Below, in pieces: positions 46,201 to 48,832 of a stretch of DNA of 64,000 bases; position 1 is the first letter of the stretch, and each line of letters opens with the position of its first letter. Location of the stretch: positions 16,573 through 80,572 of the forward strand of contig SOKP01000253.1 in NCBI GenBank assembly GCA_004375715.1, read 5' to 3'. The notes under the pieces are model-generated. The model was given only the letters and a program-made list of their open reading frames with translations. It had not been told where the DNA came from and ran no database searches. A program made the translations under genes and the position numbers. Origin of the DNA: Promethearchaeota archaeon (GTDB lineage: Archaea; Asgardarchaeota; Lokiarchaeia; Sigyniarchaeales; SOKP01).

Positions 46201-46516
46201 TAACATAAATGCTGTAAAACTTTATAAGGTTCACGAATATGGATTGGAGCCTAATATTATGCAATGTCTGCAAGATGGGCGCATAGACATGGTAATAAAC
46301 ATTCCAATGCCAACCACAGTAGAAGAGAAATTTAAAACCATAATGGAGGACGAATACAAAATTAGACGCATGGCTGTAGATTATAATATTCCTGTGATAA
46401 TTAATCTACAATTAGCAAAAGCTGTAATCGACGCTATAAAAAATATGCGTGAAAAAAAAATTGAAATAAAATCGCTTAATGAATACCATCAAACACTAAA
46501 AGAAGTTTATTGGTAA
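43205..46516 (+). CDS. carB: Carbamoyl-phosphate synthase large subunit
   Basis: [32 protein letters not shown] and the second half [19 protein letters not shown] (duplicated ATP-grasp), with a C-terminal MGS-like domain. The ATG at 43205 is preferred over the track start at 43169. Confidence 0.95.
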   Translation: [1103 protein letters not shown]

Positions 46517-46543
46517 AATAAAAAAATCTAATTATTTGAATCG

Positions 46544-47038
46544 TTATATTAGCGATTTTATTGTAAAATCTGTTTTAAATTTTTTAATTAAAATTTTTAA
46601 CATTTCTTTTTTTGATTTCATTTTACCGTCATAAAAAATTTTGAACATTTTTTGTTGCGGAGAGTATTCTATAGGATATTTAGAGCGATTGATATCGAAA
46701 TAGAGCTCTAAATCTTCATAAATTCTTTTTATTATATATGTCCGATTTTCTATTGGTATAGGATTTAAAATTTCGAATTCTAAACCTTTTTTCTTTAAAA
46801 GATTCTCTAAAAAATGTTTTTCTTTCCTACTTAACCTTATTAACCTAAATTTCCTAAAATACCCTATTATCCACCAGCTAAAAGCATAAAGCAAAATCAT
46901 CCATAAGGAAGTAATATAAGCGGTTATTGGTGCACCCAAATTGTATAAGAGCCAGCTAAATACGCCAAGGAAGAATCCAATAAAAAGATAAGATGTTTTC
47001 CTACCTATATTCTTAAACCATTTTTTCGATCTTTCCAT
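46544..47038 (-). CDS. Hypothetical membrane protein
   Basis: 164 aa with two TM helices followed by a Lys-rich soluble tail. It lies inside the segment bracketed by the two carB 3' copies. Confidence 0.4.
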   Translation of the reverse strand: MERSKKWFKNIGRKTSYLFIGFFLGVFSWLLYNLGAPITAYITSLWMILLYAFSWWIIGYFRKFRLIRLSRKEKHFLENLLKKKGLEFEILNPIPIENRTYIIKRIYEDLELYFDINRSKYPIEYSPQQKMFKIFYDGKMKSKKEMLKILIKKFKTDFTIKSLI

Positions 47039-47185
47039 TAATGAGTTCCCTCTATTTGTCGTTCTATAAATTTCAAATTTAAGTTTAAATTTTTTTACCA
47101 GCTTTTTAACTAATATTATATTGGTTTTCTAATATTTTTTAATTTTAATAAACCAAATTATTTATTTGTTAACCAAAAATGAAAC

Positions 47186-47434
47186 TTAAGTGTGTTTTTT
47201 TCCTCTCGATTTAGGGTATCTTATAATTCCACCTACAAACAATGGAGCAGCCCACATTATACTAAATAGTATACCGTATAAAAAAGCAATTATCATAGGG
47301 TCTCCTTGATTAATTGAAATTAGACTTCTGGATAACCCCGTAAACAAACCAATAAGGGTTCCCATGATGAAACACCCTTTTCTTGTATTACCTCCATGGT
47401 ATAATTTTTTAAACCAGATAGCTAACCTCTTCAT
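47186..47434 (-). CDS. Hypothetical small membrane protein
   Basis: 82 aa with two TM helices. Confidence 0.35.
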   Translation of the reverse strand: MKRLAIWFKKLYHGGNTRKGCFIMGTLIGLFTGLSRSLISINQGDPMIIAFLYGILFSIMWAAPLFVGGIIRYPKSRGKKHT

Positions 47435-47508
47435 TCTTAGATTTTTATCCTCTTTATTCTATAAAGATATAATTTTTAATTAAAAGGTGCATGGTTAATT
47501 TTTTTCTC

Positions 47509-48522
47509 TCAAGCTTTAAAATCAAGAGGTTCTCCACAGTTCGGACAAAATTTAAATTTGACTCCCATATGATACCCACAAACGGGACAATATAAGCCAG
47601 AATCGACATGTTCTGGTTGAACTTGAACCTCTTCTGTTCTATTTGACTCAGTTAGCACTTGATAATAGCCTCGTCGGTATCCTAAATCGAATCTTACTTT
47701 TAACGATGTGAAAAGAGTGGTCAATAAACATATAAAAAGTGGTCCAAGAATGATTCTTACTACATTATTCAATAACTCATTCAAAAATAGCATATCATAT
47801 CTCCTGCTTGCTGGGTCGTACCACGAGGCTAATGTAAAGGCGTCCACATGCCATATAAGGTTTAAGAACAAACCGTAAATCATATTAATAACAATGATAA
47901 TTAAAGAGCTGATAACAACAACTCCAATGATTTTCCAAAATGCTCCTTTAGTAATTAATCTTGCTTGTTTGAGAGGTTTTTCTATGTTTTCAAATTGATA
48001 AGTGAATACTGAACAAATATAAAGTCCGTAAATTATAATTCCAGGAATCAATAAAAACAAGAACCCAAGTGGAACTCCAAGACCAAGAATAGTAAGGACT
48101 ACAAATAATTTGGAATTAAATGATTTCTTTATATCTTGAACGAAATCAGTATCTAAGTTTAAGTACTTCTTGTAGAGGTAAATACTCACGGAACTCATAG
48201 CTAAGGTTGTAAAAAAAGCGTAAATAATACTATCTATAAAGATAACGATAAGACCAAATAGTAAAAAACTTATGAGTTGAGCTATATCAGCTTCCGTCAA
48301 GTTTGAAGGATAAGTCGCACCAATTATATTTCCGAGAACAGAACCTTGCCAATTCAGATCTGCGAGTAAAAAAATCTTTAAAAGCAAATAAATTACATAA
48401 AAAAGGGTAAGCGGTACGATAATTTTTGGCCAGTTTTTTTTAAATAAGCGAAAACCATCGGAAATGGATTCACCATAACTTTTTTTTGCTATTCTTGTTA
48501 ATTCTTGAGATTCGCGCGACAT
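47509..48522 (-). CDS. Polytopic membrane protein with a C-terminal zinc ribbon
   Basis: 337 aa with about 6 TM segments. The C-terminus is CPVCGYHMGVKFKFCPNCGEPL (C-x2-C ... C-x2-C). Confidence 0.5.
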   Translation of the reverse strand: MSRESQELTRIAKKSYGESISDGFRLFKKNWPKIIVPLTLFYVIYLLLKIFLLADLNWQGSVLGNIIGATYPSNLTEADIAQLISFLLFGLIVIFIDSIIYAFFTTLAMSSVSIYLYKKYLNLDTDFVQDIKKSFNSKLFVVLTILGLGVPLGFLFLLIPGIIIYGLYICSVFTYQFENIEKPLKQARLITKGAFWKIIGVVVISSLIIIVINMIYGLFLNLIWHVDAFTLASWYDPASRRYDMLFLNELLNNVVRIILGPLFICLLTTLFTSLKVRFDLGYRRGYYQVLTESNRTEEVQVQPEHVDSGLYCPVCGYHMGVKFKFCPNCGEPLDFKA

Positions 48523-48611
48523 ATTTTTATTATTTATATGTGAGTAAGGACCATTTAATAAGATTCAAAGTGAGTTAATAAATATTGTTATAATTTGATT
48601 CTGAATTCTAA

Positions 48612-48832
48612 ATTAATATTCCTTTGCCAACAACAGTCAAAGAGAAATGTAAAAAAATAATGGAAGACGAATATAAAATTAGACGCATGGCAGTAGATTA
48701 TAATATTCCTGCTATAATTAATCTTCAATTAGCAAAAGTAGTTATTGATGCGATTAAAATTACCCGCCAATAGAAAGTAGAAATTAAATCACTTACGAAT
48801 ATCATCAAATACTAAAATAAGTTTATTGGTAA
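48612..48832 (+). pseudogene. Decayed second copy of the last ~73 codons of carB
   Basis: It aligns codon-for-codon with 46295..46516 ([49 protein letters not shown] versus [49 protein letters not shown]). After that it carries an in-frame TAG and a 1-nt deletion. By hand I count about 39 differences over 222 positions. Confidence 0.8.

Follow-up and report, generated by a model that had tools for sequence, protein, structure and literature searches.

Structure of the carB locus

Here we consider a second, displaced copy of the 3' end of carB, the gene encoding the large subunit of carbamoyl-phosphate synthase, found in a stretch of 64,000 nucleotides from contig SOKP01000253.1 of a Promethearchaeota archaeon (the window). 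The intact carB gene occupies positions 43205..46516 of the plus strand. Its open reading frame (ORF) opens with a TTG at 43169, upstream of the ATG at 43205 that fits the MPLDKS start of the relatives, and its tail terminates with ...KEVYW*, as do the tails in the relatives. The gene product is 71-97% identical, at the amino acid (aa) level, to that of carB from 77 Promethearchaeota loci, and the CPSase Pfam domains were found on an orthologue of the window gene. The last 73 codons with the stop codon and about 5 nt after it (46294..46521, plus strand; blastn and repeat search) constitute the functional copy 1 of the repeat, assigned to tail type A. Copy 2 (48611..48837, plus strand; blastn and translation) is a non-functional tail of type B with no upstream carB sequence. 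Between the copies are three genes on the minus strand, the cargo. Two of them, c164 (46544..47038) and c82 (47186..47434), encode membrane proteins of 164 and 82 aa, recognised as ORFs with hydrophobic segments; the third, c337 (47509..48522), encodes a polytopic alpha-helical membrane protein with a C-terminal Cys4 zinc ribbon, as seen from the ORF, Pfam and an AlphaFold2 model. An 88-nt spacer upstream of c337 (48523..48610), probably its promoter region, is kept in every locus that has the insert and ends at the cargo/copy-2 junction. The right neighbour of copy 2 is the gene of a PAP2-family lipid phosphatase (48868..49893, minus strand; Pfam E-value 9e-21).

The direct repeats, 46294-46521 and 48611-48837, are 82.9% identical over 228 nt (blastn, E-values 5e-61 to 5e-62), and they are the sole match at E<1e-8 when the 64-kb window is compared with itself. 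The repeat search splits the pair into 46294-46478 and 48611-48795 at 82%, and 46481-46531 and 48797-48847 at 86%, with a one-base offset. The copies have identical orientation and codon register, and their homology stops a few bases past the stop codon. Translated in register, copy 2 reads ...KITRQ*KVEIKSLxEYHQILK*VYW*, its lesions being a TAG codon in frame, the deletion of one nucleotide and a further stop in register. By the Nei-Gojobori method, the first 49 codons of the copies have 16.5 synonymous and 6.5 non-synonymous differences, and all 70 comparable codons have 22 and 12, respectively, with the non-synonymous to synonymous ratio (pN/pS) of about 0.13. An earlier note on this DNA, made from the sequence alone, had described the downstream recurrence of the carB end, the common orientation and register of the copies, the decay of the second one by the TAG codon and the deletion, the end of homology just past the stop codon, and three opposite-strand genes for membrane proteins in between. 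All of this is borne out, each cargo ORF having hydrophobic segments of transmembrane length, and the hand count of 14 synonymous against 6 amino acid-changing differences in the first 49 codons is close to the one given here.

Occupied and empty sites in related genomes

The search with the carB tail yielded 77 loci, denoted by L numbers below, all with Asgard-type carB and nearly all labelled Promethearchaeota (Lokiarchaeia and relatives), the closest being 94-97% identical to the window at the aa level. Occupied loci were also gathered via the contigs of c337 orthologues. In six close relatives (L001, L002, L003, L006, L007, L008; carB 94-97% aa identical) the site is empty: the PAP2 gene follows 40-46 nt after carB, as the earlier note had proposed to check. 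The site is occupied in L004, L009, L012, L013, L078/79, L082-L101 and the window. A degenerate 27-nt pattern taken from the cargo/copy-2 junction retrieved 15 further metagenome contigs.

The same cargo/copy-2 junction is observed in about 30 independent Lokiarchaeial contigs from different studies and assemblers (metagenome-assembled genomes (MAGs) at NCBI, and JGI and ENA assemblies). In the occupied loci the cargo-specific sequence stops, and the carB homology starts abruptly at position -222 of carB, counting back from the gene end; the existence of one junction in all occupied loci implies a single founding joint. Past copy 2, the sequence runs colinearly with the spacer between carB and PAP2 at the empty sites. 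Further to the right, an 88-aa ORF (o88; 50105-50371, plus strand) and a gene with the PhoU/MazE domain (50378-51376, minus strand) are syntenic in most of the loci L001 to L076, so that the region 50105..51376 is likely to be a homologous anchor.

The PAP2 gene has two alleles, about 40% identical at the aa level, among genomes with carB identity of 94-97%. The window allele is shared with L002 and L003 (85%) and with the distant L030 (70%), and the other close relatives hold the second allele. Several outgroups have no PAP2 gene, and there carB is directly followed by o88. The record of L004 (DATKTW010000157.1) is labelled 'Candidatus Nanopelagicaceae bacterium'; its carB is 96% aa identical to that of the window and the locus is fully syntenic; it is probably a mis-binned Asgard contig. 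The papers on Asgard mobile elements that were examined make no mention of the carB-downstream locus.

Cargo genes

The composition of the cargo varies. The set c164-c82-c337 is shared by the window, L012 and L013. The pair c164 and c337 is found in L078, L090 and L101, the latter being the closest relative of the window; c82 is missing from these three and from L079. In L004 and L084, c337 is accompanied by c190, a gene encoding a 190-aa membrane protein; L005 has c190 alone, and L009 and L094 have all four genes (c164, c190, c82, c337). Thus the cargo varies gene by gene, combinatorially, and not as a unit. In three contigs (L082, positions 3924-5813; L086; L097) a gene for a 629-aa membrane histidine kinase (HisKA/HATPase_c) is situated between copy 2 and PAP2, showing that DNA is also accepted to the right of copy 2. 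In the 17 loci with both flanks, the carB-PAP2 interval is explained by genes for small membrane proteins with at most 296 nt left over, which leaves no room for a recombinase gene.

The c164 gene represents an orphan family with 29 protein clusters among 5.8 billion sequences, nearly all at least 76% identical, and it seems to occur almost only behind carB; a distant homologue (49% identity) resides in an unrelated gene context. Its nucleotide identity across diverged genomic backgrounds is 88-100%.

The zinc ribbon of c337, also suggested earlier for the third cargo gene, matches PF13240 with the E-value of 5.6e-5, just under the Pfam cut-off, and its four cysteines are invariant in 51 homologues. 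The AlphaFold2 model of c337 (pLDDT 84) has no fold match in PDB at E<=0.001; its weak resemblances to CysZ and CTL1 were not trusted. A database look-up with the exact sequence of the window protein returned no record. The protein belongs to an Asgard-specific and Asgard-wide family. All contigs with c337 orthologues that were examined have the gene at the carB-PAP2 site, and relatives at 46-47% identity sit between genes for a DUF2070 membrane protein and PAC2, a proteasome assembly chaperone, in other Asgard genomes (L080, 8001-9059; L081, 2468-3484). This conserved context hints at a core cellular role of the family.

No relatives of c337 were found in the IMG/VR viral contigs, and scans of the cargo against PHROG, NCBIfam and PADLOC produced nothing meaningful, only matches at the level of zinc ribbons. 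Pfam and PADLOC gave no matches to toxin, immunity or defence proteins for the cargo. The repeat search of the window revealed no repeat family between the cargo genes beyond chance matches of AT-rich sequence. The cargo genes are small membrane-protein genes and probably accessory genes of the envelope.

Origin and decay of copy 2

The window copy 2 is closest not to its own copy 1 but to copy 1 of L084 (89%), followed by the functional tail of L008 and copy 2 of L004 (87% each). The latter copy also groups with the L008 tail (84%). Other copies 2 have other partners: that of L012 groups with copy 1 of L009 (89%), and those of L101 and L085 are 94% identical to copy 1 of L002. Judging by these affinities, the copy-2 sequences are polyphyletic.

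The differences between copy 2 and functional tails are mostly synonymous, with pN/pS of 0.02-0.22. In L084 and L095 copy 2 is uninterrupted, and the two copies of L084 are separated by 30 synonymous changes against 5 non-synonymous ones (pN/pS 0.04); the pS of intact copy-2 sequences relative to copy 1 is 0.6-0.7. The disabling lesions differ between genomes and are independent. On the other side, the old clade formed by copy 2 of L012, L082 and L083 has a shared frameshift and pN/pS of 0.5-1.6, as expected for a pseudogene that would be decaying neutrally. The polyphyly, the synonymous bias and the existence of intact copies all indicate that copy 2 is a displaced tail that served as a working carB end until recently, and that in several lineages it was renewed by exchange with working tails. 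This agrees with the claim of the earlier note that both copies evolved as functional carB termini in different lineages.

The tail types do not follow the insert. Type A tails are observed at empty sites (L001, L006) and at occupied ones (window, L012), and type B-like tails occur at an empty site (L008), as copy 2 and, in L084, which is occupied, as copy 1. Hence the tail type is independent of occupancy, which argues against a tail brought in by an element; the earlier note had itself named the lack of such a correlation as evidence against its reading.

Two other sources of copy 2 were considered and rejected. More distant Promethearchaeota (L024, L036, L042, L056, L058, L059, L061, L063) have two complete carA-carB operons in tandem, the paralogues being about 70-80% identical in the nucleotide sequence of the tail and 52-57% identical in the aa sequence of carA. 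Descent of copy 2 from such an ancient paralogue is at odds with the paralogue identity of about 70% and with copy 2 nesting among the tails of close relatives. Nor did copy 2 arrive together with the PAP2 allele of the window: the orthologous copy 2 of L004 adjoins the other allele, and the identity to L002, which has the PAP2 type of the window, is only 80%.

Recombination at the locus

Comparison of the window with the group of L012, L013 and L078 yields a sharply uneven profile. In the 250 nt before position ~46217 (45967-46216) the carB body is 54-76% identical; copy 1 is more similar (84-94%), c164 and c337 are 88-100% identical, and inside copy 2 the identity drops again to 73% and further to 57%. 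In the same 250 nt upstream of ~46217 the window and L009 are 76-84% identical. Between the window and L012, L013, L009 and L078, the cargo with copy 1 is 87-100% identical at the nucleotide level, and L009 and L012 are 99-100% identical in c164 and 64-84% in carB. As the 2-kb cassette is more similar than the carB body, it has moved between backgrounds.

The carB gene itself is a mosaic, with the identity in 111-nt bins ranging from 59 to 99% among these genomes. Left and right of copy 2 the window matches L101 with 96-100% identity, and within it with 72-87%, a local replacement between near-identical strains. Copy 1 of L009 bears the copy-2 signature (GTCAAAGAG), and copy 2 of L084 and of L085 bears the copy-1 signature, the swapped signatures being indicative of gene conversion. 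The similarity steps between genomes have no single position. Taken together, the carB mosaic, the replacement of copy 2 and the swapped signatures point to homologous recombination and gene conversion.

In one carB segment of about 100 nt (window ~45960-46070, carB -555 to -445, compared with L010-L013 and L078), the L012 group shows only 54-62% identity to all the remaining close relatives, against ~80-86% in the neighbouring segments. This suggests that a patch of a very divergent carB may have been imported.

Related scars with other breakpoints

In L009 (11759-11834), and also in L094 and L089, a 53-nt duplicate of the 3' end of c82 and then the final 25 nt of carB, with the TGA stop, lie immediately before c190. 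The same joint of the carB end and c190 is a live gene boundary in L004, L005, L084 and the distant L067, whose carB is 73% identical at the aa level and whose c190 unit is 83% identical at the nucleotide level.

The complete Promethearchaeota chromosome CP070831 (L045; CP070831.1, 11138-13233) has a stacked arrangement: carB and a gene for a 173-aa membrane protein are followed, in tandem, by a 714-nt carB tail and a 171-aa homologue. The tails are 78% identical in nucleotides, and the membrane proteins are 40% identical in aa. The second carB piece is an uninterrupted ORF of 228 aa (12004-12690) that starts with an ATG of its own and might encode a stand-alone MGS-like/allosteric domain protein.

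Three events with breakpoints at -25, -222 and -714 argue against one att site. In each, a block that was once directly 3' of carB has been joined to another haplotype and retains a carB piece of arbitrary length, which fits one illegitimate and one homologous crossover.

Genomic context of the window

The window is ordinary chromosomal DNA with genes for valyl-tRNA synthetase, glutamine synthetase, ABC transporters and a Ras-like GTPase, as well as pyrG and carAB. The insert, with the GC content of 22-34%, is not compositionally distinct from the AT-rich surroundings in the GC and skew profile. No integrase, transposase or recombinase domain was found by Pfam in about 50 window ORFs scanned (the cargo and neighbouring ORFs at E up to 0.1, and 40 other ORFs of at least 139 aa at E up to 1e-5). 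The tRNA scan found no tRNA genes in the window, hence there is no tRNA-linked att site here. Three large ORFs, 60378-63587 (1069 aa), 15405-16367 (320 aa) and 37993-38994 (333 aa), have no Pfam match at E<=1e-5.

A second variable islet occupies the opposite flank of carAB, between pyrG and carA (33162-42027). In L009, L011 and L078 pyrG directly adjoins carA. In the window the interval holds seven genes on the minus strand (HpaB, enoyl-CoA hydratase, acyl-CoA dehydrogenase, a 4Fe-4S protein, a 333-aa protein, an Rce1-like protein and an AMP-binding enzyme), and L003, L005, L007 and L008 hold differing subsets of these.

The second carB tail as a probable recombination scar

We consider it fairly probable, albeit far from certain, that the second carB tail is a recombination scar, formed when two carB-downstream haplotypes were joined by one illegitimate and one homologous crossover, with subsequent spread and erosion by homologous recombination. 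The hosts appear to be freely recombining marine-sediment Lokiarchaeia, and the interval behind carB, a variable islet with alternative contents: PAP2 alone, c190, c164-c82-c337, or the histidine kinase. The suggestion of the earlier note that DNA was inserted at the carB terminus, as opposed to a duplication in situ, is supported by the empty relatives, the shared junction and the synonymous bias.

The founding event would comprise an illegitimate joint between position -222 of carB and the DNA lying 88 nt upstream of c337, and a homologous crossover either in carB or in the PAP2-o88-PhoU region. The block headed by PAP2 would thereby keep the last 222 nt of the carB gene that formerly preceded it, that is, copy 2, which has no promoter, start codon or upstream gene body and is now decaying. 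The product then reached diverged lineages and was reshuffled by homologous recombination and gene conversion, as shown by the comparison of genomes. Copy 1 and the beginning of copy 2 probably act as homology arms. A plausible route for the cassette into an empty carB-PAP2 site would be a double crossover that starts in copy 1 and is completed in copy 2, with no integrase involved. The 3' part of copy 2 would then be the tail of the recipient itself, in line with the drop of identity inside copy 2 and the affinities of the copy-2 sequences. Afterwards, single cargo genes and parts of copy 2 were lost from one lineage or another.

The arrangement resembles a displacement by homology-facilitated illegitimate recombination (HFIR): a promoterless 3' fragment of carB lies downstream of the joined DNA, with the intact carB adjoining, and recombination in the anchor gene proceeds by homology without specific sites, as seen from the carB mosaic, the contrast between the cassette and its flanks, and the replacement of copy 2. 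As for the parental haplotypes, carB-PAP2 is common, and carB-c190 exists in L004, L005, L084 and L067.

Several considerations weigh against the scar. The founding event is inferred, not observed. Among the ~30 occupied contigs there is no carB-c164-c82-c337 haplotype devoid of copy 2 and PAP2, so either block may have been the incoming one. The illegitimate joint, TAAATT|AATATTCC versus GGTAAT|AAACATTCC, lies in AT-rich sequence, where matches of 3-4 nt are expected by chance. An identical junction in all loci would also result from a site-specific system, and strain-chimeric assembly of MAGs could inflate the fine-scale mosaicism, a caveat for the alternatives below as well. Finally, we know of no experimental demonstration of HFIR in archaea.

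A bolder version can be put forward only tentatively: the duplicated tail might make the cargo a self-contained, integrase-free 'knock-in cassette'. As both copy 1 and the 5' part of copy 2 have their homologue in the one carB tail of an empty genome, a double crossover would suffice to bring the entire cassette into any related Lokiarchaeon. Accessory membrane-protein genes would time and again dock at the carB tail, to be stacked there and exchanged over distances of species level. Should this hold, and we regard it as equally tentative, archaea would have in it an analogue of an integron or an additive island that works by recombination only.

Alternative explanations

The earlier note had assumed an integrative element carrying its own copy of the gene end. 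In its present form this alternative is a remnant or satellite of a site-specific element that inserted at the 3' end of carB, with copy 1 being the attP-borne tail and copy 2 the native one, and with the integrase lost or acting in trans. It would account for the direct repeats bracketing an insert that has empty counterparts in relatives, for the junction being identical in all occupied loci, for copy 2 resembling recently functional native tails, and for copy 1 with the cargo being more similar across backgrounds than the carB body, the step being at the repeat start or within ~80 nt upstream of it. Nevertheless we consider it unlikely, as every positive hallmark except the repeats is missing. 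There is no recombinase in the scanned window ORFs or in any of the 17 bracketed inserts, so the observation of the earlier note that no integrase lies between the repeats extends beyond the window. For the cargo, which was to be compared with viral and mobile-element collections, no relatives were found in PHROG, PADLOC or viral contigs; the Asgard family that includes c337 is chromosomal, and the genes come and go singly. Typical att cores are far shorter than this repeat of 222 nt with its 83% identity, there is no correlation between tail type and occupancy, and the sister scars break at -25 and -714. As to a fixed crossover core, the occupied loci with their common junction count as one event.

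An integration of the Campbell type seems somewhat less likely still. Here a circle containing the 222-nt carB tail and the cargo would undergo a single homologous crossover with the chromosomal tail, duplicating the whole region of homology. Such a crossover yields the order full repeat, cargo, full repeat without an integrase, and homologous recombination is clearly active at the locus. However, the circle would have to be closed by a prior illegitimate event between carB -222 and the region upstream of c337, hence the scheme is not simpler than a linear HFIR joint. The scan of IMG/VR viral contigs with c337 found no circular or extrachromosomal copy, and the L009 scar (53 nt of c82 and 25 nt of carB) does not have the expected symmetric form with full repeats.

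A tandem duplication of the carB tail in situ, by replication slippage or template switching, would make copy 2 an old paralogous pseudogene. The one shared junction and the L012/L082/L083 clade, with its common lesions and neutral evolution, agree with that, but the divergence of the copies is strongly synonymous (for the window pN/pS is about 0.13, for L084 it is 0.04), the affinities of copy 2 are to functional tails from other genomes and not to its own copy 1, and intact copies 2 exist at pS of 0.6-0.7; this makes the duplication very improbable, and its private form is excluded by the ~30 contigs with the same junction together with the six empty relatives.

An assembly artefact joining the carB alleles of two strains, an alternative raised in the earlier note, could be imagined in a strain-rich, metagenome-like source population, the more so that the exact copy-2 variant of the window is absent from the near-identical contigs L101, L085 and L092, but as an explanation of the architecture it is excluded for practical purposes by the same contigs and empty sites, each contig having its own lesions and cargo subset, and by both junctions being unique sequence and not repeats that an assembler could collapse.

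Comparison with known systems

The carB scar is real and well replicated, and it is neither an active mobile element nor a new molecular machine. What it demonstrates is that accessory envelope genes may be stacked behind carB with no mobile-element machinery, and that carB is mosaic on the scale of roughly 50-100 nt. The locus favours the view that frequent homologous recombination, with occasional illegitimate events, drives changes in the gene content of Asgard populations. Recombination and gene flow in Lokiarchaeia can be followed with the islet as a marker, and the tract lengths and rates of recombination could be measured here directly from sediment metagenomes.

Some integrative elements target protein-coding or tRNA genes at the 3' (or 5') end and bring a replacement for that end; integrative and conjugative elements at gene 3' ends are of this sort. 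Islands with dusA-specific integrases are an example of integrative elements at the end of a protein-coding gene (PMC4482086). The carB locus resembles these in having an intact gene and its displaced partial copy as direct repeats, and empty sites in relatives. It differs in the absence of an integrase from any copy, in the length (222 nt) and divergence of the repeat, in the gene-by-gene variation of the cargo and in the existence of other breakpoints.

Tycheposons of Prochlorococcus form arrays of partial tRNA-gene repeats and include cargo satellites without an integrase, the autonomous members having dedicated integrases and replication genes. As in tycheposons, the carB cargo modules are separated by partial copies of the target gene, and many have no integrase; unlike tycheposons, no autonomous member of the carB cargo group was found. 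The locus is not an integron either, as the window ORFs scanned contain no integrase and no repeat family separates the cargo genes.

In aquatic prokaryotes, flexible genomic islands persist through homologous recombination between their conserved flanks (Lopez-Perez et al. 2014, PMC4033161), and small variable segments of bacterial genomes provide a further comparison (PMC2884548). Similarly to flexible islands, the carB islet has a fixed position between conserved genes, alternative gene sets, highly diverged alleles (PAP2, 40% at the aa level), cargo of the envelope type and mosaic flanks. Pure replacement, however, leaves no duplicated flank, whereas at carB the event was additive, and the remaining scar of 222 nt may in its turn be used as a homology arm.

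In the Rhs, contact-dependent inhibition (CDI) and type VI secretion system (T6SS) effector-immunity loci, C-terminal displacement and arrays of orphan 3' ends have been proposed to arise by HFIR (Kirchberger et al. 2017, PMC5361080); Jackson et al. 2009, as cited in PMC5361080, is also behind the displacement model for these loci. Here, as there, a conserved gene is the homologous anchor, the incoming DNA brings a new gene end along with the genes behind it, the former 3' end is displaced downstream and becomes an orphan devoid of a promoter, no integrase takes part, recombination does not need specific sites, and arrays grow stepwise. The differences are in the actors. The carB anchor is a housekeeping enzyme whose tail is conserved (73-99% aa identity across the 77 loci), with no variable toxin tip as in polymorphic toxins; the orphan end has no function to preserve and simply decays; the cargo comprises small membrane proteins and not immunity genes; and the hosts are Asgard archaea. 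Thus the displaced gene end at carB is a scar of a kind known from bacteria, newly documented in Asgard archaea and at a housekeeping gene.

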